A model generated the notes under the pieces. That model searched no databases. It was not told the DNA's origin and saw only the letters and a list, made by a program, of their open reading frames with translations. From the IMG/VR virus record IMGVR_UViG_3300036715_001865, positions 32,001 through 96,000 of that record: a stretch of 64,000 nt of DNA. The stretch is one strand, 5' to 3'. Shown piece by piece: positions 1 to 45,850 of this stretch. The first letter of the stretch is position 1; each line of letters starts with the position of its first letter. Origin of the DNA: a virus. A program made the position numbers and the translations under genes.

Positions 1-213
1 AGTCTTCCATTTTACCAGAATTGAACAAGATGGGGCAGAACAAATTGGTAAATTATCACCATGTATTATATGCCATAACCTTTGTTGCAATGAACTGTTT
101 GTTGGTAAAAAATTAGTCTGTTCGATAACCTGTTGCTTAATATGAGCATTGGTTTTTTTTAGATTTAATTCATTCCCATGTTGTTGCCATATTATTGCCT
201 CTTCCTTTGTCAC
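1..213 (-). CDS. Hef-like endonuclease family protein, N-terminal part (runs off the window edge)
   Basis: Not in the ORF track. GTG at 213 follows AGGAG. Reads MTKEEAIIWQQHGNELNLKKTNAHIKQQVIEQTNFLPTNSSLQQRLWHIIHGDNLPICSAPSCSILVKWKT, matching the 'TxFL...R(L/V)H.I...P.C..C' N-termini of 2272..3738 and 7320..8927. Confidence 0.75.
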   Translation of the reverse strand, partial: MTKEEAIIWQQHGNELNLKKTNAHIKQQVIEQTNFLPTNSSLQQRLWHIIHGDNLPICSAPSCSILVKWKT

Positions 214-214
214 A

Positions 215-268
215 AAAATAACTCCTAATTAAAGGAGTTATTTTAACACAAATACAACATATAATCAA
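215..268 (-). promoter_or_regulatory. sigma70-type promoter overlapping an SD-sequestering hairpin
   Basis: TTGATT(268-263)-N17-TAAAAT(245-240), preceded by TG. 12-bp perfect stem (215-226/233-244) whose mRNA 3' arm contains AGGAG. Confidence 0.75.
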
Positions 269-291
269 CAGATTATATTTTACCTGCCCCC
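261..291. repeat. Direct repeat, copy of the tail tube gene 3' end plus -35 box
   Basis: 28 of 31 bases identical to 1611..1641; offset 1350 bp. Confidence 0.8.
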
Positions 292-363
292 AAGCTCTAT
301 TTGCCACATCTGGATTAAAATCCTGTAATGTTTGTATCACTGTGGGTGATATACCTAAATGGT

Positions 364-1527
364 CTAATATCCAATTTGCTCCTTGGTCCACGCTATCTCC
401 AATAGATGAAGGTAATGCCCCACAAAATCTGATTCCCACATAACAACCAGATTATAACCTAGTGATTTTATTAGGTTTTCTCTTTCGATAGTTTTTTGGT
501 ATAGCTCGCCCATTGATTTTCCATTCACTTCATTAATTTCATTTGGTGGATAAATTATTGGATTTCCGTGCCAATAATCACCATGAAACTCATAGATTGT
601 ATTTGTTTCTTCACAGTACCCATCAGCTCTATATCTAGTAGATGGTATTTTCCACTCAGATATTATCTCATAATCTTGTTGAGTTAGCCAGAGTTGGCAC
701 TTATATGAACTCCAAAAATATTGTCTAATTTCAATTTCGTAATGTCGTAAGTGTGAAAGTATAGTTCCATATGTAATAACATCTAATTCACTGGCAATTT
801 GAGTAGCAGTTTTGTTTTGTGTAATGTATTGATCAAATAACCAATTATAATCCTCTATTAATGGGAGAATATCCACCATATGTTGTTGACTAGCATGTTT
901 AACACCATATTTCAATATATTATTATTTGCCCTTTTATTTTTAATTTCTTGTGTTTGTGATGCTCTTATTACCCCATATTTTTTCATATGAGTGGAGGTT
1001 ATAGCATCCTGTACTTGCTTTGTTTGTACTGGAAATACTGTACCATACTTTATCATACAAGTATTATTTCTTTTTTGTCTAACAATAGGGCTTTGTGATG
1101 AATGATGTACACCATATTTCTTTAGATTAGTAGCTACTGTGTTTACTTTCCCACTAGCTGATTGGGCAGCATATTCTACACCATACCTCTCTATCATTGT
1201 TTGTTTTTGTTTTTGTTGTATCAGATCAGAAGACATAGGATTTTTTGTCCCATATCTAATTAAATTGGTAGCAGCTGCTTTGTCTTTTAATTGTGCTGAT
1301 TGCATTGGATTTTCAACACCATACCTCTTTACCATTGTTTGTTTTTGTTTTGCTTGTTGAGATAACTTATCTTGCTTTGCACAACTAGCACTACAATATG
1401 TATTAAATTGTCCCCCAGTAGCCACATTTCTCCATTTTACCTCAGTAGGACACATTTTACACAACACAGGATATGTCTTATGGTGTTTATCTAACCAACC
1501 TTGTTGAATATCAGATATCTTTTTCAT
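364..1527 (-). CDS. Free-standing PD-(D/E)XK (Vsr-like) endonuclease, Hef-like, without GNAT module
   Basis: CxxC/YCSxxC zinc motif, tandem 'KQTMxxRYGVxxxxQ' repeats, an HTH-like segment and RADGYCEETNTIYEFHGDYWHG...LVVMWESD. ATG at 1527 chosen; the ORF track starts at TTG 1539. Confidence 0.75.
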   Translation of the reverse strand: MKKISDIQQGWLDKHHKTYPVLCKMCPTEVKWRNVATGGQFNTYCSASCAKQDKLSQQAKQKQTMVKRYGVENPMQSAQLKDKAAATNLIRYGTKNPMSSDLIQQKQKQTMIERYGVEYAAQSASGKVNTVATNLKKYGVHHSSQSPIVRQKRNNTCMIKYGTVFPVQTKQVQDAITSTHMKKYGVIRASQTQEIKNKRANNNILKYGVKHASQQHMVDILPLIEDYNWLFDQYITQNKTATQIASELDVITYGTILSHLRHYEIEIRQYFWSSYKCQLWLTQQDYEIISEWKIPSTRYRADGYCEETNTIYEFHGDYWHGNPIIYPPNEINEVNGKSMGELYQKTIERENLIKSLGYNLVVMWESDFVGHYLHLLEIAWTKEQIGY

Positions 1528-1562
1528 AGTCCCAACCAACTGCTAATTTGTGTACCCTAGAC

Positions 1563-1618
1563 ATAATAAACTCCTATTGAAAGGAGTTTATTATAAACCA
1601 CATAAGTAAAATAATCAA
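1563..1618 (-). promoter_or_regulatory. sigma70-type promoter overlapping an SD-sequestering hairpin
   Basis: TTGATT(1618-1613)-N17-TATAAT(1595-1590). 13-bp perfect stem 1563-1575/1582-1594 containing AGGAG. Confidence 0.8.
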
Positions 1619-1641
1619 CTGATTAAATTTTACCTGCACCC
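1611..1641. repeat. Direct repeat (tail tube 3' end, stop codon and -35 box)
   Basis: Partner of 261..291. Confidence 0.8.
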
Positions 1642-2210
1642 CCTGTAGCAATCCCCGGACCCTGTGAATATCCTCCAAGTACTTGTCTTGCATGGTCAAA
1701 ACTGATTACAACAGCTAGTTCAACTGGATCACCTGTTTCATATGCCAACTCTGCATAATCAATACTTTCAATCCAACAACCTTCAATTGTCCATTTTTCA
1801 ATCACTTGATCATTACCATCTAACATATCTAAGTAACTAACAAACTTATATAATGAACCTTCCCCAGCAGCCGCGAGCCATTGACCTTCAGCCCCAATTA
1901 ACCACTGTTGTTTTTGTTCCTGTGCTTGTAATACTCGAGATGCAGTTCCAGTAACATCATCTTGAATCGTAAGGTTCATTGGTTCCCACGAATGTTTACC
2001 AGCAATATATGAAATTGAGTTATAACGATGCAATGTTATTTTCTCATGTTTTAATTGTGGTCTACTAACCTTTGTTGTTTGCATAGATATTGGCTGACTA
2101 TCTGTTCCACCACCCATGTTCGCAAAGGTGATTCTCCATCTATTTTTGTGTTTTGGGTGTAGGATACCTGTTCCAACACCTGGAATCCCTATATCATTAA
2201 TTGTTGACAT
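1623..2210 (-). CDS. gp19: Tail tube protein
   Basis: 'KHKNRWRITF', 'YIAGKHSWEPMNLTIQDD', 'WTIEGCW...L.Y......ELAVVISFD' match the T4 gp19-type tube; downstream of the sheath gene; has a late promoter. Confidence 0.9.
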   Translation of the reverse strand: MSTINDIGIPGVGTGILHPKHKNRWRITFANMGGGTDSQPISMQTTKVSRPQLKHEKITLHRYNSISYIAGKHSWEPMNLTIQDDVTGTASRVLQAQEQKQQWLIGAEGQWLAAAGEGSLYKFVSYLDMLDGNDQVIEKWTIEGCWIESIDYAELAYETGDPVELAVVISFDHARQVLGGYSQGPGIATGGAGKI

Positions 2211-2237: not shown

Positions 2238-2245
2238 TATTTATA
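2238..2245 (-). promoter_or_regulatory. T4-type late promoter TATAAATA (tail tube)
   Basis: Exact consensus 28 nt upstream of the start codon. Confidence 0.85.
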
Positions 2246-2271: not shown

Positions 2272-3738
2272 TCACATTAACACATATTTAATCTTGCCAC
2301 AGTCCCATATCCGCAAAACTCCATTTAAGTCACAATTAACTTTTTCACTCAACTGCTCGTCATATTTTTTTAATAATTTTGATAGGTACTTTCGACGATA
2401 GTTAAATTTGTGTACCCGATTGTGTCCATCTGGGGAATAATAATAATCAGGAGGTAGAGTACTTACAGAAATAAACCCAGTGGCTTGGTATAACTCTCCT
2501 GAACTCCACCTCAAATCCGCAAATGTTACGATCTGGGACGGAGCATAATTGGTTTTGAAATATGATAATAACTTAGTAAACCCACCTACAATCAATGAAG
2601 ATGTGGCATATCTATTTAACACAAATGCTCCACCCTGTTGTTGTATAAACGACATACAAGATACCAACTCATTGTCATATGTTAGTCCTATATTAATGGA
2701 ACTAGGACCGTCCCCTTGTATGTGGTGGGCAGTAAGAAAGGATTGCTTAACATCTGGAGATACTGTTTGGATAATACACTTTCTGCCATATAACCGAGGT
2801 CGATTATCACAGTTTAATAAAATATTTAATTTTTCTTTTATTATAGGTTGTTTTTGTTTCCACTCATCTTCGTATATTGTCAACAATCTAATACCCAACT
2901 GTTCACACATTTTGTGTTTGGTGCTGTGATAATGTTTATGTTTACCTTGTTGTTCACTGTGCCAATACAACCCACAATACTCAATTGCTAAATTATACTC
3001 TGGTATGAATATATCAAGCTCATATGGAGGTATGATAGTACGAACATTGACATCAAACGAAATAGACAATCCACGTAAATAATCACCTATTTGTTTTTCG
3101 CCAGTAGATACGAAAAAATGCTTTGTATCATATCCTAGTTTATGCAAGTTTCGTTGAACTGTATTAACATCAACTTCTAGCTCTGTAGCGATATCACTCA
3201 ATGTTCTTTTATTGACATGGTGTTGTTCTTGTAACCACGTAGGGTCTATTAATTTGGAATAACTGGTAGGTATTATGTGTTTTTGATTTTTGTGTATTCT
3301 ACCATACCGTTGGATATTTGTGCTTTGTTGTTTATTTTTAACTTCAACAGTTTGTTGTGGAATAGTAGTACCATACCGTTGGACATTTGTATTATTGCGC
3401 TTGATGATCCGATTAGGATTATCAATCCCACATTTATACGAACAGGTATCAGAATACCCAACATTTTTTCCTGTTGTATTAAACTTAACTAGACTATGAC
3501 ACACTACACACAGTTTTGGGGAGATTATATGGTTTTTAATACAATGAACCCTCTCCCTAAGAGACGATTTTAAATCATCTGTTATGAAGTCGGTGCGGGT
3601 CATTATATATGAAGTTGCAACAGGGTTTAATTTCAACACCCCAAATGATTTTTTTGATAATTTATAATCACTATCTAGTATACCACAATCTACTAGGTGG
3701 GTCAGAATTTCACTATCAGTTTTAAATTCATCAGACAC
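2272..3738 (-). CDS. Hef-like endonuclease with C-terminal GNAT/Mom-like module
   Basis: Zn motif and RYG repeats; ELDIFIPEYNLAIEYCGLYWHS nuclease motif; HIQG...LNRY...GGFTKL...TFADLRW...GF...IWDCG module. Confidence 0.8.
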   Translation of the reverse strand: MSDEFKTDSEILTHLVDCGILDSDYKLSKKSFGVLKLNPVATSYIMTRTDFITDDLKSSLRERVHCIKNHIISPKLCVVCHSLVKFNTTGKNVGYSDTCSYKCGIDNPNRIIKRNNTNVQRYGTTIPQQTVEVKNKQQSTNIQRYGRIHKNQKHIIPTSYSKLIDPTWLQEQHHVNKRTLSDIATELEVDVNTVQRNLHKLGYDTKHFFVSTGEKQIGDYLRGLSISFDVNVRTIIPPYELDIFIPEYNLAIEYCGLYWHSEQQGKHKHYHSTKHKMCEQLGIRLLTIYEDEWKQKQPIIKEKLNILLNCDNRPRLYGRKCIIQTVSPDVKQSFLTAHHIQGDGPSSINIGLTYDNELVSCMSFIQQQGGAFVLNRYATSSLIVGGFTKLLSYFKTNYAPSQIVTFADLRWSSGELYQATGFISVSTLPPDYYYSPDGHNRVHKFNYRRKYLSKLLKKYDEQLSEKVNCDLNGVLRIWDCGKIKYVLM

Positions 3739-3799
3739 AAAAAACTCCTATTTTTATTAATATTATATAGGAGTTTTTTGTTTTTTACAACATTACTTA
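3725..3799. repeat. 75-bp direct repeat carrying promoter, hairpin, SD and first codons
   Basis: 3725-3792 is identical to 5318-5385 (68 bp), followed by one mismatch and 6 more identities. Confidence 0.95.
3738..3790 (-). promoter_or_regulatory. sigma70 promoter within a terminator-like, SD-sequestering hairpin
   Basis: TTGTAA(3790-3785)-N17-TATAAT(3767-3762). 14-bp stem CAAAAAACTCCTAT/ATAGGAGTTTTTTG; the U6 tract is the SD-to-GTG spacer. Confidence 0.8.
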
Positions 3800-5331
3800 G
3801 TCAATACCCATCTCTGTAGACCACAATTATATATTTGGTGTATGTTGTTATTGTGGGTATTGGTTACTTCACTTAGGTTGGGGTCATAAGTTTTTAATAG
3901 ATTAGGTAAGTTCTTGTGTCTATAATTAAATTTATGAACCCGACACTCGCCTATAACATATTGGTAATCAGGAGGAGTAATTTTATCTAACACAAACCCA
4001 TTTGTACCATATATTGTTCCAACACTCCATCTCAGATCAGCAAAACTTATAATAGTAGCCCACTCATTATTATTTTTAAAATGCGACAATAATTTACTAA
4101 ACCCACCTCGCACCTGTCCAATGGTAGCATACCTATTCAATACAAAGTTGCCTTCACCTTTATTAATAAAGGTCATCATCGCTACAAAATTGCCACCATA
4201 GGTAAGTCCATATGTTGTGGACCCTGGACCATCTCCTTGTATATGATAGGAATCAAAAAATTCTGATTTTGTTTTCTTGTTTGGTACTGTGATTACACAC
4301 GACCGCCCATTAATTTTTACACCTTCACTATATCCAAGTATAGTTCTGATGGTATTTTTAACCAGGTGTGAATTATTCAACCACTCATCCGAGAATATAG
4401 TGATTAATCTAATTCCAATATCTGCACACCTATTATATTTCATTTGGTGATAATTGGATGTTTTGTATTCAGAGGAGTGCCAATATAATCCACAATATTC
4501 TATGGCTATGTTTTTATCAGGGATGTAAATATCTAGTTCATATGGTTTAATTAATGACCTATTTTTAACTTCAAAAATTACACCAATTTCTGTTAGAAAC
4601 CGTTCAATATCAACTTGTTGCTGTGAAGATGATTGGTGCCAATACTGTACTTCTATTCCATGTTTTATTAATCTACTAGAGACTACTTTATGGGAGTTTT
4701 TCCAATGTAATCCCAATTCAACACACATAGATGCAACTGTCCGTTGATTAGTTATGTGTTGTTCATACAACCAATCAACGCTATTGAGTTTATTAATGGC
4801 TTCCTCAGATAAAACAGATAATAGCTTGACTGTGCTGGACGGTATCCACCCATTATCAATCTTTCGTCCTATGGTTATTTTTCTAATTTGTTTACTATGT
4901 TCACTATATTGTCTATGTTGAGACAGTGCAGTTAATTGAATTTTTTGACGAGTATCAGTTGATGTTGTGTTGCCGTTGTTCCAATGGGTAATTTGTCCAG
5001 TTGAGAATCGTTCTTTTCTGGTATTGGACAATTGAATGTTTTGTTCAACTGTTCTTGGGATGCCTTTGTTCCAAGCTTGGGTAGGATTATCTAATTTTGT
5101 TTGTTTTATCTTTTCAACCACCTCTAATGATCTTGGTACTCCTTTTCTACTTGAATTTGATCTAATGGCTGCTTCTCGTTTTCTATTGGTTGCATTTGTG
5201 GACTTTAAAACAGCAGTGGGATACAACAGTTTATACTCTGGTAACGTGGTGCTATGTTTTGAAAGATGTTTCCATGTAATGGTAGACATTTCTGCACCAC
5301 ATATCAAACATTTAATTAATTCATCAGACAC
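3793..5331 (-). CDS. Hef-like endonuclease with C-terminal GNAT/Mom-like module
   Basis: N-terminal CxxC..H..H zinc finger and NUMOD3-like 'AWNKG' repeats; ELDIYIPDKNIAIEYCGLYWHS; HIQG...SFADLRW...NCG module. Confidence 0.8.
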   Translation of the reverse strand: MSDELIKCLICGAEMSTITWKHLSKHSTTLPEYKLLYPTAVLKSTNATNRKREAAIRSNSSRKGVPRSLEVVEKIKQTKLDNPTQAWNKGIPRTVEQNIQLSNTRKERFSTGQITHWNNGNTTSTDTRQKIQLTALSQHRQYSEHSKQIRKITIGRKIDNGWIPSSTVKLLSVLSEEAINKLNSVDWLYEQHITNQRTVASMCVELGLHWKNSHKVVSSRLIKHGIEVQYWHQSSSQQQVDIERFLTEIGVIFEVKNRSLIKPYELDIYIPDKNIAIEYCGLYWHSSEYKTSNYHQMKYNRCADIGIRLITIFSDEWLNNSHLVKNTIRTILGYSEGVKINGRSCVITVPNKKTKSEFFDSYHIQGDGPGSTTYGLTYGGNFVAMMTFINKGEGNFVLNRYATIGQVRGGFSKLLSHFKNNNEWATIISFADLRWSVGTIYGTNGFVLDKITPPDYQYVIGECRVHKFNYRHKNLPNLLKTYDPNLSEVTNTHNNNIHQIYNCGLQRWVLTK

Positions 5332-5392
5332 AAAAAACTCCTATTTTTATTAATATTATATAGGAGTTTTTTGTTTTTTACAACACTACTTA
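5318..5392. repeat. 75-bp direct repeat (second copy), directly behind the sheath stop codon
   Basis: Partner of 3725..3799; contains the same promoter, hairpin and GTG TCT GAT GAA TT start. Confidence 0.95.
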
Positions 5393-5394
5393 AG

Positions 5395-7128
5395 TTATGC
5401 TGTCAAGGACGCACCGGTTGCAACAATTCGGATTGGAATATATATAAATTCCGCGGCCCTTACAGGTTTCAATGCGACATCGAGATACATTTCATTTCTA
5501 TCAATGCGATCAGGTGTATTATTAGAGGAATCACAGACTGTAGCGAAATCATATAGACCACGTTTAACAATCAAATCACCCAAAAATGAATCAACAGCAG
5601 CTTTTAGGTTATCTCTGGTTAGTTGATCATTTGGTTCAAACACAAACGGCATTGTGTTTTTGCGTAATGAACGTTTGATATATTGAACCAAACGTACCAC
5701 ATTGATACGATCCATTGCTGAAGCATCCGGAGCAGAAGTTTTTTGTCCCCATACAATAATACCTCTTCCTGGGAAGAACACAATAGGATTAATATTGGTA
5801 AAGTATTTGTATAAGTTATCTCTTTGTCCTAAATTCAAAGCAACTGGGTTGAATGTAGTTGGTGTTCCTAGAGTACCAGATACATATCCAACTTCAGATA
5901 TACTTGATACTTGTCCACGTCTAGTTCCAGCTGGTGCAAACCACATTTCTGACACTTCATCACTGTATATGATTGTGCGTAATGCAGTACCAGATGCTGA
6001 AACGAATACATTTGCTCCATCTAAATTTGATGCTAATCCGTGTGGATAATAATATGCCACATTTCGGTTAGATCTTCGTTCAACAGTAGCAGCCCAAGTT
6101 ACAACATCTTCTGGAGTTTTGGTAAATGGAGTATCAGCAATAACAAATGCTTCTTCTTGTATATCAATTACCAAATTGATTAATTCATCCACAACTTCAG
6201 GGAAACCAGGACATACAACAATGTTATATTCGTATGCTTCTGATCTTATATCAGTGTTGCTGTTAATAGATGCTTGTAAGGCTGTAACAACAGCAACTCT
6301 ACGTGCAGCATCATTTGAACCAAGGCTAGTTTCGTTGGCAAATTGATTAGTATACTTAAATTCATCAGCACCACCCAATAAAGCGTTACCAGCTTCTTGT
6401 GGAGTCCATTCAGTAGTTACAATTCCACCTAAGTTATTGTTAACCCAGTCAGTTGCAATTCCAGCTAATCCAAGAAATACACCAGTTGCAGCATTAGTAC
6501 AACCATTAGCATACACTAAATATGGAGAGGACGCATGGTCATCCATGAAACTAATACGACTGTGTGCAAATGAGAACATGCTCCAAATAGGTTGTGTTGC
6601 TGCTGCTGCAAGTGATAAGAATTTGGTACGATTGATAGTGGTTTTGTAAGTTGGGTCTGATGGAACATATCCATTTGATAAATTAAATTCATTCAAATAT
6701 GCATTTGCTAAATTTTCCAGAACATACGAAGCTTCTTGGATTTTAGTATCCCACATCATTTGAATATCAGCAACATTATCGTTCAAGTTTACATTTGCAC
6801 GAATAACATATGCTCTGCTACAAATACCTAAACACTGATTCAATGCAAACAAACCGTATTCATTTCGGGTATCCCCATGTAGTGGTCTACCACTAGTATC
6901 TGTTAAGAATTTAGGAATACCATACAATTCAGTACTTTGTCTTAAACTGGTAAGAGTTCGGATCACATTAGATTCATATGTGCCTGCCGCCCCAGATATA
7001 CCATCTGGTTTAGTTTTTTCATCAGCTGTTGCTATGAAAATTAATGGGACAGTTTTAGCTGATGCTGGAATGAAAAAGGATTCATCTGTCACAGTAACTG
7101 ATACCCCTGGGCTAATTAAATTTGCCAT
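5395..7128 (-). CDS. gp18: Contractile tail sheath protein
   Basis: 'LISPGVSVTVTDES' N-terminus; 'WFAPAGTRRG', 'WGQKT', 'DRINVVRL', 'FVFEPND..TR', 'KPVRAAEFIYI' sheath motifs. Confidence 0.95.
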   Translation of the reverse strand: MANLISPGVSVTVTDESFFIPASAKTVPLIFIATADEKTKPDGISGAAGTYESNVIRTLTSLRQSTELYGIPKFLTDTSGRPLHGDTRNEYGLFALNQCLGICSRAYVIRANVNLNDNVADIQMMWDTKIQEASYVLENLANAYLNEFNLSNGYVPSDPTYKTTINRTKFLSLAAAATQPIWSMFSFAHSRISFMDDHASSPYLVYANGCTNAATGVFLGLAGIATDWVNNNLGGIVTTEWTPQEAGNALLGGADEFKYTNQFANETSLGSNDAARRVAVVTALQASINSNTDIRSEAYEYNIVVCPGFPEVVDELINLVIDIQEEAFVIADTPFTKTPEDVVTWAATVERRSNRNVAYYYPHGLASNLDGANVFVSASGTALRTIIYSDEVSEMWFAPAGTRRGQVSSISEVGYVSGTLGTPTTFNPVALNLGQRDNLYKYFTNINPIVFFPGRGIIVWGQKTSAPDASAMDRINVVRLVQYIKRSLRKNTMPFVFEPNDQLTRDNLKAAVDSFLGDLIVKRGLYDFATVCDSSNNTPDRIDRNEMYLDVALKPVRAAEFIYIPIRIVATGASLTA

Positions 7129-7319: not shown

Positions 7320-8927
7320 ATGAATGAGCTTGAAACAGAATTGCACAAATTAAACATATTCACCCACAATGGAACTATTAATAAACAAGCGTCCAGATTA
7401 TTAACCAACAATCCTGAGACATTATATAAATTAATAGAAGCAACAAAATTTCTAGAAAACCACCCCTCTAATCGAGCCAGATTACATGCTTTGAGAACGG
7501 GACTATTATCACAACCCAAGTGTGCAACATGCTCAACAGCCACTACATTTAATAATGCGACTGGACAGTTTAATAAATTTTGTCCAAATACTGGTGGGAA
7601 ATCTTGTACAAACAGTAACACAGACTCCATTCTTAAAAAAAATACCACTATGGTTAAAAAGTATGGAGTTACCAATGCTGCACACAGTGAGGAGTTACAA
7701 ACCAAACGGAACAATACTATGGTGGCTAGGTATGGCTGTACAACACCTATACAAAATGCTGACATTAAACAAAAAATAAAAGATACCATGATGGCTAGAT
7801 ATGGAACGATGCATATTGCTCATATTCCACAATCTGCCACGAAACGAAAGGAAACTAACATCCGCAAATTTGGAGCTGCTACATATGCTCAATCATTGGT
7901 GCCCACTGAAGCTATAGACCTATTATCAAACATAGATTGGTTGTCAGACAATTTAAAAGATTTTACGGTGGCAGAAGTTGCGATAGCAGCAAACACGTCT
8001 GTATTTACGGTTAGAAAATGGATTTATCATCACAATCTACAACACTTGTTGGTATCAACTGGCTCATCTGATCAACGAGAGTTGGCAAGATTCCTAGATA
8101 CACTGGATTTAGAATATACAACCAATGATAAGCAACTAATTGCTCCAAAGGAAGTGGATTTTTATATACCATCCAAGCAATTAGCTGTGGAATATAATGG
8201 AATTTTTTACCACTCACAGTTATCAAAACGAGATAAAAATTACCACATAAACAAAACAACTAGTTGCAACAATAATGGGGTTAGATTAATTCAAATATGG
8301 TCAAATGAATGGAAAAACAAGAAAGACATTGTACAATCCAGAATATTACATGCTGTCGGAATGTCTACTCGAATATATGCTCGGAAGTGTAATATAATTG
8401 TATTACCAACAGCAAACGAACAACAATTTTTTGACGATAACCACATACAGGGAGCAGTACGATCAACTATTTGTTTTGGATTGGAATTGGATGGTAAAGT
8501 GGTAGCATGTATGAGTTTTATAAAATCCAGATTTTCCCCAACTCATGAATGGGAACTATTAAGATATAGTGGCATTAAAAACCATACAATATTAGGTGGC
8601 GCAAGCAAATTGTTTAAACATTTTGTAAAAACACATAATCCAACATCTATAGTGTCCTACTGCGACCTACGTTGGGGAACTGGGACATTATATTCCCAAT
8701 TAGGTTTTACATATTCACACACAAGTGCACCTAATTATTTTTATTTTGTCAGAAATGGGGATACTAATAAGTTATTCACAAGGGTCAATTTCCAAAAGCA
8801 CAAACTAGCTAATAAACTAACCACATTTACCCCAGAACATACAGAATGGGAAAACATGGTTAATAATGGTTATGATAGAATTTGGGATTGTGGGAACAAG
8901 GTATTTACTTGGAATAATGGCGGATAG
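7320..8927 (+). CDS. Hef-like endonuclease with GNAT/Mom-like module, antisense to the structural operon
   Basis: Zn motif and KYG repeats; EVDFYIPSKQLAVEYNGIFYHS; NHIQG...WELLRY...GGASKL...SYCDLRW...IWDCG. Confidence 0.8.
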   Translation: MNELETELHKLNIFTHNGTINKQASRLLTNNPETLYKLIEATKFLENHPSNRARLHALRTGLLSQPKCATCSTATTFNNATGQFNKFCPNTGGKSCTNSNTDSILKKNTTMVKKYGVTNAAHSEELQTKRNNTMVARYGCTTPIQNADIKQKIKDTMMARYGTMHIAHIPQSATKRKETNIRKFGAATYAQSLVPTEAIDLLSNIDWLSDNLKDFTVAEVAIAANTSVFTVRKWIYHHNLQHLLVSTGSSDQRELARFLDTLDLEYTTNDKQLIAPKEVDFYIPSKQLAVEYNGIFYHSQLSKRDKNYHINKTTSCNNNGVRLIQIWSNEWKNKKDIVQSRILHAVGMSTRIYARKCNIIVLPTANEQQFFDDNHIQGAVRSTICFGLELDGKVVACMSFIKSRFSPTHEWELLRYSGIKNHTILGGASKLFKHFVKTHNPTSIVSYCDLRWGTGTLYSQLGFTYSHTSAPNYFYFVRNGDTNKLFTRVNFQKHKLANKLTTFTPEHTEWENMVNNGYDRIWDCGNKVFTWNNGG

Positions 8928-8930
8928 CCA

Positions 8931-9698
8931 TTATTCCCAAGGTAGATCAGCAGCATCATCTATTTTCTCATATTGCAAATTTTGAGAATCTAATTCACTA
9001 ATAATATCAAATGGCATTTCAGTAGAAGTGTTTATGATTCCTATTCTTGCATATATTCTTTCTACAAAATCACGGCGGACTTCTGCTGGGGTATCTAATT
9101 CAATAGGCATTTCAAATGTAAGCCTACTTTGTATGATTCTTTTATCTGTGCCTATTGGAAAGTTTGTTTCTAATTGAACATCTTTTAATTCCACATGAGT
9201 CAATCTTGTCCAATCAAATATTGCGTCACTTGTTTGGATATTAAGTGATGGGTCAAATAATGGAAGAATTTGTTCCATTATTTGTAAGTGTTGTTGTGTA
9301 TTACTTGCAAATATATTGAGTTCAATTGTTAAGTTGTATGGGACAGGCATACGTTGGTGAATAACCCTCATATCATCTGGAACCAACCCACCAACAGGAG
9401 TATACGTCTGTCTACGTTCAGTACCAACACCACGAGCTCGTTGCATAGTTAAAGTTAGACCACTCATATATGCACTCATAATAGGTAATCGTAAAGGTTT
9501 GTTGTGGGTGTTTTCAGTTTTTAAGGCTGCTACAACCTTGTCCATGTGTCCATAATGAATCCCAACAGGTATCAATGCAGCTTCTCTATCATTCCATTTT
9601 CCGACCTGTACCTGCAACCCACCAAATATGGCCATAAATTGATTTATATACCTAGCCAACTGTCCATTGTAGTAGTAGCCATCTTTTTGCATTGCCAT
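8931..9698 (-). CDS. gp15: Tail sheath stabiliser / tail terminator
   Basis: 'YYYNGQL..Y...F..IF', 'PVPYNLTIELNIFASN....LQIMEQILPLFDPS' match T4 gp15; position between neck and sheath genes. Confidence 0.8.
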   Translation of the reverse strand: MAMQKDGYYYNGQLARYINQFMAIFGGLQVQVGKWNDREAALIPVGIHYGHMDKVVAALKTENTHNKPLRLPIMSAYMSGLTLTMQRARGVGTERRQTYTPVGGLVPDDMRVIHQRMPVPYNLTIELNIFASNTQQHLQIMEQILPLFDPSLNIQTSDAIFDWTRLTHVELKDVQLETNFPIGTDKRIIQSRLTFEMPIELDTPAEVRRDFVERIYARIGIINTSTEMPFDIISELDSQNLQYEKIDDAADLPWE

Positions 9699-9725: not shown

Positions 9726-9733
9726 TATTTATA
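9726..9733 (-). promoter_or_regulatory. Late promoter TATAAATA (gp15-like gene)
   Basis: Exact consensus upstream of the start codon. Confidence 0.85.
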
Positions 9734-11604: not shown

Positions 11605-11641
11605 AAATACCCCCAAAGAGTTGTCTTTGGGGGTATTTATA
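11605..11641 (-). terminator. Terminator of the 825-aa gene that overlaps the next gene's late promoter and SD
   Basis: 15-bp stem (11605-11619/11624-11638) followed by a U-run; TATAAATA at 11641-11634. Confidence 0.75.
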
Positions 11642-14178: not shown

Positions 14179-14186
14179 TATTTATA
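14179..14186 (-). promoter_or_regulatory. Late promoter TATAAATA
   Basis: Exact consensus upstream of 14139. Confidence 0.85.
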
Positions 14187-19122: not shown

Positions 19123-20772
19123 TCAGGATGAGCACATACTAAATTTTAATGTTCCACAATCCCACACTCTATAAAAACCATGATTAACCATGTTTTGATA
19201 CTCAGTTAATGTGGCGTCATAATTTGGTAGGGTATTTTTAATAATATCTTTTCTATAGTTCCATCTATGTTTCCGCTGCCCGTTTACCACATAAAAATAT
19301 GCTGGAGGATTAGTTGCTACTAAATTGAACCCCAGTTGGTAATACATATTACCAACGCTCCACCGTATGTCAGCAAAACTATATATTTCTTTCCAACTGT
19401 GATTTCTCTTAAAATGGGTCAATAATTTAGATGCTATCCCCGGAATACGGTAGTCAACATCTGTACAAAATCTACTTAATTCCCATATCCCTTCTTTTGA
19501 TTTTGTTTTATCTTTTTGTCCCAAAGCTACTCTAGGTGAAGTCCATGTCATGACAGATATTAATTTATCGTTATAATATGCTCCGTAACACAACTGAGAA
19601 TTATCATTCCCCTGAACGTGGTTGGCATTCAATAACGATTTTTTTTCTTCAGGTGTACAATATTTAATGACACAATTACGAGCATGTATTTTTTCAGCAC
19701 TTCCTGTAAATGTGTAATGTTTTAATTTTGCGGTCAATAAATCAACATTTTCCATTTCGTCCTCAAACAATACAATAAAAGGTGTAGCAGATTCTTTAAA
19801 TGCTTTATATATAGCCAACCCACTTTTTAAATTCGCATACGATTTGTCCAATGGCAGTACTATAATAGCTCTATTTGAAGCTTCATCATACACTGTCACA
19901 ATAATATCAGCAATTTTTATAAAAGGTTTGCTATTAGGAAATATACCCATCAATGTTTTAGCGTACTGTTCCAATTTTGTATTAGTTGAAATAAACTGAA
20001 AAAACAACGGAGGGATAGTTCCTTTAATATGATTTCGAGAGCCAACATTTTCCAACCATCCAATCATTTGAAGATTAGAATCGTCAGCACACATCTCAGG
20101 TGGGATATTATTATCAAAACAAAACCGTTTAGGTACAATATGGTCTAAATGATACGCTCCATCTACACCTGCTTTCCCTCGTTTTAAATTAAGGGGATTA
20201 ATCTTTTTCTTATGCTTTTTATATACTTGTTCCGTCAAAGCTGTTACAGTAGCCTTATATTGTTGCCATTCTGTAGCAGTTTCTTTCCATTTAGCTGAAT
20301 TTGCCTTTGACCAAGCTGTTAATGGAGCAACTCTTTTCAATGGTCCACACACTCCACATTCTACTTCCATTTCTAATAAATTAGTTGGAGTACAATGAAA
20401 TTCGTGGCCACAATGGATATTTTTAACTAACAATTTAGAGTAAGTGTTTTCGTTTAATAAATGCCTACGACCATCATAATTTGGTGTTAGTATTATTATT
20501 CCTCTTTCTAATAATTTTTTCAAATTTAAATCCCTAGAAATAGAATATTTCTGGTCTCTTTTGTTAGTATTACAGGTAGGACATCCAGATACTCCATATT
20601 TTTTATATGTTTGTCTTTTGGATAAAGGAGTAGCAGTCCATATATGATTACAGGTCATACATTGCATTTTGTGGTGTTTTTTAGTTCCAATAAATGGTTC
20701 TAAAAGTTTAATGTGGTTTTCAGTTTCTAACAATAATGGATAATTATTATTAAATTCTCCTTCTTTTGGCAT
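19123..20772 (-). CDS. HNH endonuclease fused to a degenerate PD-(D/E)XK domain and a GNAT/Mom-like module
   Basis: Two CxxC ribbons; YHLDHIVP...NLQMI...EN..S.N HNH motif; NHVQG...WELSRF...SFADIRW...VWDCG. Confidence 0.8.
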   Translation of the reverse strand: MPKEGEFNNNYPLLLETENHIKLLEPFIGTKKHHKMQCMTCNHIWTATPLSKRQTYKKYGVSGCPTCNTNKRDQKYSISRDLNLKKLLERGIIILTPNYDGRRHLLNENTYSKLLVKNIHCGHEFHCTPTNLLEMEVECGVCGPLKRVAPLTAWSKANSAKWKETATEWQQYKATVTALTEQVYKKHKKKINPLNLKRGKAGVDGAYHLDHIVPKRFCFDNNIPPEMCADDSNLQMIGWLENVGSRNHIKGTIPPLFFQFISTNTKLEQYAKTLMGIFPNSKPFIKIADIIVTVYDEASNRAIIVLPLDKSYANLKSGLAIYKAFKESATPFIVLFEDEMENVDLLTAKLKHYTFTGSAEKIHARNCVIKYCTPEEKKSLLNANHVQGNDNSQLCYGAYYNDKLISVMTWTSPRVALGQKDKTKSKEGIWELSRFCTDVDYRIPGIASKLLTHFKRNHSWKEIYSFADIRWSVGNMYYQLGFNLVATNPPAYFYVVNGQRKHRWNYRKDIIKNTLPNYDATLTEYQNMVNHGFYRVWDCGTLKFSMCSS

Positions 20773-30479: not shown

Positions 30480-30707
30480 CTGCTTTTAAAACATATCCCT
30501 GCCCCCACATTAACGCAGTTGATTGGAAGTACCTGGCGACATGAATATCACATGTTTATTATATTTAACTATAGTTGACATCGCTCCTAAGTGGGTCAAA
30601 CTTTATAGGCATCATCCTAAAGGCTCGTTAAGTGCACATAGGTGCTCTTCTGTTCCCTCTTCACCGATAGGTCTGGTTTATCGGTTGCGTTGCGCGAAAT
30701 TACAACT
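30480..30707. other. Hairpin-rich non-coding tract (candidate structured RNA or cis-acting DNA site)
   Basis: At least five short stems; no credible ORF. Confidence 0.4.
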
Positions 30708-44284: not shown

Positions 44285-45850
44285 TTACCTCTTCCAACTC
44301 CATATAACATTTCCACAGTCCCAAAATTTATTATAATTATTATTAACCATATTTTCCCACTCTGTGAGAGTGGGATCAAAGGTTTGTAATTTGGTAACTA
44401 GTTTGTGTTTCTGAAACTGTATCCTAGAAAACACTACCAATGGATTTGAATTTTTGAAATAATAATAATTTGGAGCGGTTACTCCTATTTTATCAAAACC
44501 TATGTACATATACCAATTAGCTTCTCCCCACCTGTAATCATTATAAGAAATAATGGATGTTGGTTGAACTTGCTGCAAAAAGTGTTTGAATAATTTACTT
44601 GCTCCTCCTATTACATTAATATCTACAGCCGAACAAAATCTTATTAATTCAAACTCATAAGCCTTGTTATATCTTGGCCTTCCAAATGTCATTATGGCTA
44701 CTAATTTATTATCATACTCTAGTCCAAATGAATATTTTGCCCCACAGTATCCTTGAGTGTGGTTATGTTCTAAAAATTCTATTGCATTAGCCCGGGGCAC
44801 TTGAACTAGTTTGCATTTTCTTGCTGGTATACTTATCGTTTGGTGTACCATTGATCTGATTCTAGATTTCACAATGTGTTTATTGAAATACCAATCATGT
44901 TCAAAAATATGTACTAATTTTATACCCAACATAGCACATCTATTTGTTTTGTTTATGTGGTATTGTTTATCGTGAAATCGGGCGGAGTGCCAAAAATTCC
45001 CATTAAATTCAAATGCTAAGTTTAACTCTGGAATATACACATCTAATTCCAATGGAGGAATTATGTTTCTACTTGATTGTATTATTTTACAATCAAGTTC
45101 CGACTGGAGAAAATGAACTAGTTCATTTTCTCCAGTCGATGTACCCCAACAAATTTCAATATTGTGTTTTTGTCGATATCTAGTTAAACAACTAGGTGAT
45201 ACCCCCAATTCTAAGGATATATCATACAGTGAACTAATTGCGCATTTATTAGACATCCAAATAGGGTCGTTTAGTTTTAATAAAGAATCTTCAGAAATAT
45301 GTTGCTGTTTAATATATTTAGCTCCATACTTATCTTGCATGGTACTCTCCCTATTGTGGGTACTAAATTCTCCTCTGGGTGGATACAACTGTCCATATTT
45401 TGTATATAGTGTAGATTGAACTGTTTCTTTCCACCCTGGTAGTTGGGTGTTGTGCTCGACCCCATATCGTGCTAACATAGTTTGTTTTTGTTTTTGTTTT
45501 CTGTTACTAATCAGTTCGTGGTTATTATCCCTAGCTTGAATACTTAATTTCCAACTATCTAATTGTGTGTTGTGAGACACTCCGTGATTTGCCATCAATG
45601 TTGCTTTCTGCTTCTCAGCAAATTTAGGTACCATTGCCGAATGGGGTGCACCATACCTAGTTACCATAGTAGCTTGTCTTGATTTCGCTATATCTGGGTC
45701 AGCATACATGCATGCTGTTGAACAATATGTTCCAAATTGTCCTTTAGTTGGTTGCCACCGAACATGATTATCACATTGTTTGCATTTTATAGGAAGAGTT
45801 TTGTTGTGAATAGATAGCCACTCTTGTTGCTTCTTGGTTATTTTTTGCAT
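44285..45850 (-). CDS. Hef-like endonuclease with GNAT/Mom-like module, antisense within the baseplate cluster
   Basis: Zn motif and RYG repeats; ELDVYIPELNLAFEFNGNFWHS; NHTQG...FELIRF...GGASKL...SYNDYRW...FWDCG. Confidence 0.8.
   Translation of the reverse strand: MQKITKKQQEWLSIHNKTLPIKCKQCDNHVRWQPTKGQFGTYCSTACMYADPDIAKSRQATMVTRYGAPHSAMVPKFAEKQKATLMANHGVSHNTQLDSWKLSIQARDNNHELISNRKQKQKQTMLARYGVEHNTQLPGWKETVQSTLYTKYGQLYPPRGEFSTHNRESTMQDKYGAKYIKQQHISEDSLLKLNDPIWMSNKCAISSLYDISLELGVSPSCLTRYRQKHNIEICWGTSTGENELVHFLQSELDCKIIQSSRNIIPPLELDVYIPELNLAFEFNGNFWHSARFHDKQYHINKTNRCAMLGIKLVHIFEHDWYFNKHIVKSRIRSMVHQTISIPARKCKLVQVPRANAIEFLEHNHTQGYCGAKYSFGLEYDNKLVAIMTFGRPRYNKAYEFELIRFCSAVDINVIGGASKLFKHFLQQVQPTSIISYNDYRWGEANWYMYIGFDKIGVTAPNYYYFKNSNPLVVFSRIQFQKHKLVTKLQTFDPTLTEWENMVNNNYNKFWDCGNVIWSWKR

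Follow-up and report, generated by a model that had tools for sequence, protein, structure and literature searches.

A near-identical promoter-hairpin leader before two stacked homing endonuclease genes in the tail module of an uncultivated jumbo phage

Introduction

Composite units of a sigma70 promoter, a stem-loop, a Shine-Dalgarno sequence (SD) and an ATG, known as promoter/stem-loop (PeSL) cassettes, have been described in T4-type phages (Arbiol et al. 2010, PMC2839356; Comeau et al. 2014, PMC4122927). Recombination between flanking PeSL copies gave deletions and mini-circles of 0.4-1.4 kb, detected by inverse PCR, with crossovers between the -10 element and the ATG (PMC2839356, PMC4122927). 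Homing endonuclease genes (HEGs) of the T4 family (I-TevI/II/III, segB and Aeh1 mobE) combine a hairpin over the ribosome-binding site (RBS) with an internal promoter, and the T4 seg/mob genes carry embedded promoters for the genes downstream of them (PMC2988022). Homing with one-sided homology can also end in illegitimate repair of the double-strand break at microhomologies (Parker, Belisle and Belfort, summarised in PMC2988022). Here we describe a locus that brings these processes together. It lies in a 64,000-nt stretch of DNA (hereafter the window), i.e., bases 32001-96000 of the 190,391-bp, metagenome-derived IMG/VR record IMGVR_UViG_3300036715_001865 (estimated to be 54% complete), and consists of a 75-nt direct repeat, R1, of which one copy stands before each of two neighbouring nuclease genes, HEG-A and HEG-B, between the genes for the tail sheath and the tail tube. 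The phage is an uncultivated jumbo myovirus related to T4; it encodes a T4-gp15-like sheath stabiliser, and its sheath is 48% identical at the amino acid level to the sheaths of Xanthomonas phage XacN1 and Ralstonia phage RsoM2USA. No GenBank phage matched the 5.7-kb region by megablast.

We consider it probable, at roughly 60%, that R1 is the shared leader of two stacked, invading HEGs, that its near-identity stems from recent recombination, and that no integron-like machinery is involved. The locus is a new example of known processes, i.e., HEG invasion, hairpin-gated expression and recombination at regulatory cassettes. Free-standing HEGs, hairpin-gated expression and PeSL-like cassettes, which have been described separately in T4-type phages, occur here together in the tail module of a distant jumbo phage. 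Empty sites in relatives, a young pair of leaders (99% identical) and an old, scarred pair (80%) make up a natural before-and-after series of selfish nucleases stacking without breaking essential late operons. Furthermore, the hairpin logic appears portable across promoter classes, and R1 offers a directly testable recombination substrate.

A first, sequence-only reading of the locus had named PeSL cassettes as a precedent, and this precedent is a real one (PMC2839356, PMC4122927). Like a PeSL, R1 has a predicted sigma70-like promoter with a 17-nt spacer, a stem-loop that overlaps the -10 element, and the SD and start of the downstream gene; a dispensable gene stands between its direct copies and would be deleted or circularised if these recombined. 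R1 differs in that it is present in two copies, whereas PeSLs form a dispersed multi-copy family, in that it lies inside a conserved tail module and not in a hyperplastic region, in that its cargo is a 1.5-kb HEG instead of a small ORFan, and in that the SD and the start codon are hidden in the 3' arm of its hairpin. Moreover, circles and indel polymorphism have been shown for PeSLs, whereas R1 is known here from sequence alone. The likeness to the hairpin-gated HEGs of the T4 family is of another kind: for R1, too, the SD is predicted to be hidden, transcripts from the leader's own promoter to lack the 5' arm, and read-through from the host gene to be silent. In both cases a promoter for the essential gene downstream accompanies the insertion, which is paralleled here by an exact copy of the T4-type late promoter box, TATAAATA, before the tube gene. 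In T4, however, it is the early transcripts that are silent, the internal promoter being of the late or middle class, whereas R1 would combine an early promoter with silent late read-through. With the Hef-like/I-Bth0305I HEGs the nucleases share the ELDI...AIEYCGxYWH core, a multi-domain build of ~500 aa, several copies per genome and a location between conserved genes of large myoviruses; they differ in being at most 35% identical to any deposited phage protein and in N-terminal DNA-binding modules that vary between neighbours. Microhomology junctions and fragments of flanking genes beside a mobile gene, as expected from illegitimate homing repair, are found at an older leader pair downstream (R2 and R2', the latter lying by a fragment of a gene for a 473-aa tail protein), whereas R1 has no visible scar of this type.

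The repeated leader R1

The order of sheath stop, repeat, 512-aa open reading frame (ORF), repeat and 488-aa ORF, as given by the sequence-only reading, is indeed present, on the minus strand, and repeat, promoter and fold analyses bear out its description of a 74/75 identical unit with promoter, hairpin, SD and MSDE codons. The main features are as follows.

5318-5392, minus strand: R1 copy 1; -35 at 5378-5383, -10 at 5355-5360, hairpin 5330-5374 with loop 5345-5359, SD 5338-5342, GTG 5329-5331, then 4 codons
3793-5331, minus strand: HEG-A, 512 aa; phrog_3339 'homing endonuclease', E 5.5e-93; stop codon supplied by R1 copy 2
3725-3799, minus strand: R1 copy 2; -35 at 3785-3790, -10 at 3762-3767, hairpin 3737-3781, SD 3745-3749, GTG 3736-3738
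2272-3738, minus strand: HEG-B, 488 aa; phrog_3339, E 5.1e-107; DUF7487-like N-terminus, nuclease core and C-terminal domain as in HEG-A

The two copies of 75 nt (99% identical) differ by a single A/G at 3793/5386 and are 1593 nt apart, start to start. Their edges are sharp, since identity drops to 27% and 23% in the 60-nt flanks. A 41-nt core of R1 occurs twice in the window, against 0.00 occurrences expected (100 shuffles). A search of the whole record for a 35-nt core, with up to three mismatches allowed, returned the two known copies only; what recurs beyond them is a looser class of leader, before six HEGs and some early genes (see below). The core had no match in IMG/VR or in GTDB genomes.

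On the coding strand, R1 begins 2 nt past the sheath stop, and its first 9 nt precede the -35 element of a promoter predicted from sequence to be sigma70-like (TTGTAA-17-TATAAT, 10/12 to consensus). The hairpin has a perfect 15-bp stem and a 15-nt loop. For the 91 nt that include it, the folding energy is -18.6/-19.3 kcal/mol (z -4.4 to -4.5), and 0 of 200 shuffled sequences were as stable. Promoter and hairpin are interlocked: the 5' arm is made up of promoter-spacer sequence and, as its last base, the first base of the -10 element, which itself ends 5 nt into the loop, and the 3' arm comprises AGGAG, a run of six T and the first two bases of the GTG. This start codon follows AGGAG after 6 nt, and R1 ends with GTG TCT GAT GAA TT, so that both ORFs start with a GTG within the repeat and both proteins with MSDE. 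The distal copy (R1 copy 2) also holds the last codon and the stop codon of HEG-A. No late promoter box TATAAATA was found inside R1.

The nuclease genes

The gene bounded by the repeats had been taken for an endonuclease gene, and its match to phrog_3339 agrees with this. HEG-A comprises a NUMOD3-like N-terminus with a short ROS/MucR-like stretch (Pfam, below cut-off), a Vsr-like PD-(D/E)xK core and a conserved C-terminal domain. Residues 242-329 of the core (ELDI...AIEYCGLYWHS) align to PDB 3r3p, 'Mobile intron protein' (E 1.3e-3), which we take to be the catalytic domain of I-Bth0305I, a Vsr-like PD-(D/E)xK homing endonuclease. Pfam gave only sub-threshold matches on the nucleases for Vsr, MTES_1575, DUF559, NUMOD3 and ROS/MucR. 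GenBank relatives, at most 35% identical, are annotated as 'Hef-like homing endonuclease' in PA5oct-type and Campylobacter phages. As judged from these matches, HEG-A and HEG-B are free-standing Hef-like/I-Bth0305I-like HEGs with putative activity.

The two proteins had been said to diverge immediately after the shared first codons. This holds for their N-terminal 160-180 aa, which are unrelated, and fails for the C-terminal ~330 aa, which are 43-44% identical (43% over 333 aa) and thus make HEG-A and HEG-B paralogues. Their aligned codons are 54% identical at the nucleotide level and 43% identical at third positions. In a maximum-likelihood tree of 22 sequences, based on the shared C-terminal region, HEG-B is the sister of a HEG from the sheath-tube gap of a relative (L051; support 96/92), followed by HEG-D (98/92), a further nuclease gene of this phage, and HEG-A falls outside this group. 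A peptide-pattern scan of IMG/VR returned no relatives of HEG-A; those of HEG-B are at most 43% identical, and most are without an obvious SD ahead of their candidate starts.

At least 10 HEG-like genes of two related families occur in the 190 kb of the record, and five of them cluster around the sheath and tube genes. The HEG-like genes other than HEG-A and HEG-B are the following.

1-213, minus strand: 5' end of HEG-D, 518 aa, which continues before the window (L014:6657-8213, minus strand); phrog_3339, E 2.2e-106; 43% identical to HEG-B over 497 aa
364-1539, minus strand: HEG-C, 391-aa ORF; second HEG family, with DUF7487 repeats (Pfam, E 3.6e-29) and a Vsr-like motif
7320-8927, plus strand: HEG-E, 535 aa, between the gp15-like and sheath genes; of the same family and 30% identical to HEG-A, HEG-B and HEG-D; Pfam DUF7487 (E 5.7e-15), with weak MTES_1575/DUF559/Vsr matches
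19123-20772 and 44285-45850, minus strand (window): other HEG-like genes
99241-100359, 120581-121663 and 140450-141601 (genome positions): other HEG-like genes

Insertion into the sheath-tube junction

The structural genes that frame the nucleases are listed below.

8931-9698, minus strand: T4-gp15-like sheath stabiliser gene
5395-7128, minus strand: tail sheath gene, 577 aa; Pfam Phage_sheath_1C, E 1.3e-17; stop codon 2 nt upstream of R1 copy 1
2238-2245, minus strand: late promoter box (exact TATAAATA) within the 61-nt spacer between HEG-B and the tube gene, 27 nt before the tube start
1623-2210, minus strand: tail tube gene, 195 aa; phrog_4542, E 8.9e-42; 933 homologues at E<=1e-20

All genes in the first 12 kb of the window are on the minus strand, with the exception of HEG-E. 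Read along that strand, the gp15-like gene is followed by HEG-E (on the opposite strand), the sheath gene, R1, HEG-A, R1, HEG-B, the 61-nt spacer and the tube gene, and these by R2, HEG-C, a gene fragment, R2', HEG-D and the genes for the 473-aa tail protein, head closure, small terminase and large terminase. The closest tube homologue (P0001) is 89% identical.

Relatives were compared by tblastn at 78 loci around tube or sheath homologues. In most of those with both genes in the locus, sheath and tube are adjacent, ~20-140 nt apart, and the tube gene lies ~80-200 nt from the gene for the 473-aa protein; HEG-A and HEG-B are, therefore, insertions. The closest relative (L035/L080; sheath 80% and tube 81% amino acid identity) has a 26-nt sheath-tube spacer, and the part of that spacer close to the SD can still be made out before the tube gene of this phage. 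Since this part of the native spacer was kept at the tube gene, the whole block of 3.16 kb sits a few bases past the sheath stop. Nucleases of the same family occupy the sheath-tube gap of four relatives on the opposite strand (L041, L042, L051 and L102) and the gap between the tube gene and the gene for the 473-aa protein in others (L051, L060-62 and L069). Such sporadic, orientation-independent occupancy of gaps is, to judge from the gene orders compared, the behaviour of HEGs.

Flanking repeats comparable to R1 were not found around single HEGs in the relatives. In L061 a 32-nt duplication (8320-8351 and 8641-8672; 94% identical, spaced 321 nt) covers the SD and initial codons of the gene that follows a nuclease gene, at a module junction.

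The sheath gene varies among relatives as well. In many of them (L004-L008, L036, L052 and others; XacN1 and PA5oct) the sheath match comes in two pieces, 250-500 nt apart, and in L094 the pieces are separated by up to about 2 kb. The sheath of relatives has an extra insertion after about residue 157, which the 577-aa sheath of this phage does not have.

Promoter classes and hairpin leaders

Nine of the ten nuclease genes carry a TTGnnn-17-TAWAAT motif within 110 nt upstream, and 25 such motifs are correctly placed before ORFs across the record. The motif-bearing genes that do not encode nucleases have typical early functions (primase, polynucleotide-kinase-like, Thg1-like, NAMPT, MazG-like and nucleotidyltransferase). 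The late box TATAAATA, on the other hand, occurs 17 times in the window in its exact form, always on the strand that codes for the surrounding genes (the minus strand for 11 boxes, up to 33104, and the plus strand for 6, from 38076; e.g., 2238-2245, 9726-9733, 11634-11641 and 14179-14186), and in the virion-gene region several copies stand shortly before the start of an ORF. This strand bias fits T4-type late promoters in this clade of jumbo phages, as far as motif positions can tell. The motif class of R1 thus stands before early-type genes and TATAAATA in the virion region, and the promoter of R1 is, therefore, most likely of the early, host-polymerase (sigma70) class. The 26-nt spacer of the HEG-free relative (L035/L080) is without TATAAATA; the gene for the 473-aa protein is preceded by the box both here and in L035.

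The design of R1 recurs in other leaders. Six nuclease leaders (those of HEG-A, HEG-B, HEG-C, HEG-D and two genes labelled H and I) have hairpins of 12-15 bp with the SD in the 3' arm and the -10 element located either where the 5' arm begins or slightly within the loop. The sequences of their stems vary (CUCCU/AGGAG, CCUCU/GAGAGG and CCCAG/CUGGG), and the four local leaders share AACTCCT...AGGAGTT. With thresholds set by ourselves, SD-occluding leader hairpins were enriched at nuclease genes (3/10, versus 5/151 other genes; Fisher p 0.008). The nuclease gene in the gap between the tube gene and the gene for the 473-aa protein of L051 has the same SD-occluding hairpin (L051:3940-4000, plus strand), with an exact TATAAATA over the 5' arm, and is in this respect a T4-like version of the leader. 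This suggests, from the sequences compared, that the hairpin design is kept while the promoter class differs, being early here and late in L051.

The older leader pair R2 and its scar

Downstream of the tube gene a second pair of leaders is present.

1561-1641, minus strand: R2; 3' end of the tube gene (5 codons and stop), TTGATT-17-TATAAT and a 14-bp SD hairpin; upstream of HEG-C
283-424, minus strand: gene fragment of 142 nt, 87% identical to codons ~77-124 of the gene for the 473-aa tail protein (genome 30183-30324, i.e., L014:6183-6324)
212-291, minus strand: R2'; remnant of the tube 3' end, TTGATT-17-TAAAAT and a 12-bp SD hairpin; upstream of HEG-D

R2 and R2' are about 80% identical over 81 nt, and R1 matches R2 at 18 of 20 positions in the SD and start region. 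According to self-BLAST and a three-way comparison, the 142-nt fragment, whose source gene follows HEG-D, abuts the tube-end remnant at a GGGG.CAGG microhomology. The homology of HEG-C to its paralogue stops at aa 372 (window ~424), exactly where the fragment starts. The ATG behind the R2 hairpin, at 1564, opens an ORF of 17 codons (1511-1564, minus strand) that is out of frame with HEG-C, of which the nuclease ORF starts at TTG 1539 or ATG 1527; HEG-C may be decaying or be translated by coupling to the 17-codon ORF. On the evidence of these junctions, the R2 mosaic is best described as the scar of unequal or illegitimate recombination between variants with different nucleases at one site, and its fragments mean that it is not the trace of a cassette with fixed ends or of site-specific insertion. 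At R1, where no gene fragment is left, the leader alone is duplicated.

Origin of the R1 pair

In the interpretation that we favour, Hef-like HEGs would have entered this T4-related jumbo phage at its sheath-tube junction, HEG-A and HEG-B being of different lineages and probably representing separate stacking events. Their leader may act as a gate, with an early sigma70-type promoter, its -10 element at the junction of 5' arm and loop, and the SD and start buried in the 3' arm. A transcript from the leader's own promoter, starting 6-9 nt past the -10 element, would lack most or all of the 5' arm, so that the SD would be free and the message translatable, whereas late read-through from the sheath gene, which is strongly expressed, would fold the hairpin and be attenuated and translationally silent. 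Expression of the tube gene would be kept via its own late promoter TATAAATA, just after HEG-B. The 74/75 identity of the leaders would then be due to recent homologous recombination confined to the leader, either because gene conversion acted on two leaders of prior similarity, or because variants that carried different nucleases behind a common leader underwent unequal or illegitimate crossover. The same stretch of 75 nt, four codons included, before unrelated N-termini points to such a recent event. Because HEG-A and HEG-B are not sisters and are only 43% identical at third positions, the 99% identity of R1 is no relic of an old duplication; the earlier suggestion that the near-identity marks a recent event is in line with this.

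As a by-product, the R1 copies would be substrates for recombination of the RecA/UvsX type, and a RecA/UvsX-like recombinase gene is present in the record. Recombination across R1 would, as had been proposed, formally remove a promoter and gene unit of 1593 bp and leave the 488-aa gene intact; the products would be sheath-R1-HEG-B and a 1593-bp circle, as for PeSL cassettes. By analogy with these, excision across R1 is a plausible and reasonable prediction. The further step of the sequence-only reading, an integron-like mechanism, finds no such backing: searches for tyrosine and serine recombinases (PF00589, PF00239) gave 0 matches in the 190-kb record while positive controls worked, R1 has only two copies, and its cargo is itself mobile. 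The R2 scar, too, indicates illegitimate or unequal recombination and no cassette with defined ends. The integron reading was rejected on the recombinase result, and the architecture differs from an integron as well: each unit has its own promoter inside R1 instead of being a promoterless attC cassette under a common Pc, and R1 leads its gene rather than trailing it.

Several points weigh against the reading of R1 as a shared leader homogenised by recent recombination. All of its expression features (start of transcription, promoter class, termination and translation gate) are predictions. The hairpin is terminator-like (A-tract, stem, U-tract), although its 15-nt loop is long and a terminator scan made no call. 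Gene conversion would leave the same picture as a duplication at insertion, and sharp edges around one complete gene unit would also be expected from the integration of a PeSL-type circle. Furthermore, with the record 54% complete, a recombinase or more copies of R1 could lie in the missing half.

The integration of such a circle is the alternative that deserves most discussion here. It holds that R1 is a portable module and that a HEG-A circle with one R1 integrated by homologous recombination into a resident R1 before HEG-B. The anatomy of R1 is PeSL-like (sigma70-like promoter, stem-loop overlapping the -10 element, 3' SD and start), the repeats bracket exactly one complete promoter and gene unit with the distal copy supplying the stop of HEG-A, the 74/75 identity is consistent with a recent event, for PeSLs it has been demonstrated that mini-circles (0.4-1.4 kb) arise, the crossovers lying between the -10 element and the ATG, and a recombinase of the RecA/UvsX type is encoded. 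It would, however, require an earlier donor in which HEG-A already lay between two copies of R1, a repeat found only twice in 190 kb and nowhere in IMG/VR or GTDB genomes; HEGs possess a homing route of their own, and the gene-fragment scars at the older R2 pair would be unexpected from clean integration of circles. We regard this scenario as unlikely, if by no means far-fetched. Slightly less likely again is a general form of it, in which jumbo phages would stack genes by a PeSL-like system that is driven by homology and uses leaders of the R1 type, with promoter and nuclease units circularising and re-integrating at resident leaders behind core structural genes. If such a system existed, selfish nucleases would accumulate in arrays, as with the five around sheath and tube, while late-gene expression stayed undisturbed, and the promoter class of the hairpin would be swappable between early and late.

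An ancient tandem duplication of leader and HEG in place, with R1 kept identical purely by purifying selection, would account for the paralogy of HEG-A and HEG-B over ~330 aa and for the AACTCCT...AGGAGTT common to the four local leaders. It sits badly with genes that are not sisters, have unrelated N-termini and share 43% of third positions, with the drift of the comparable R2 pair to ~80%, and with the identity of loop and spacer bases of R1, where no strong constraint is expected; it was largely rejected on the R2 drift, the third-position identity and the tree, and we consider it very improbable. Equally slight is the chance that the locus is an assembly artefact, in which the assembler falsely joined two strain variants that differ in the nuclease behind a common leader. 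The record derives from a metagenome, and repeats shorter than the assembler k-mer could be misjoined, but the junction between the 3' end of HEG-A and R1 cannot arise without supporting reads, the R1 copies differ at one base, and the diverged R2 pair, with the same architecture, cannot be a collapse or a misjoin.

Other features of the record

An inverted repeat of 67 nt (98.5% identical), which is not a tRNA, occurs 85 kb apart at window 30493-30559 and genome 147532-147598. Two genes of note have an early-type promoter in front, i.e., one (L110, genome 154579-155766) with a match to PHROG 1211, '2-aminooxy adenylosuccinate synthetase' (PurZ/PurA-like), and one (L112, genome 138880-139461) for a MazG-like pyrophosphatase. 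Together they may hint at modified-base metabolism, the former gene being assigned from its PHROG 1211 match alone.

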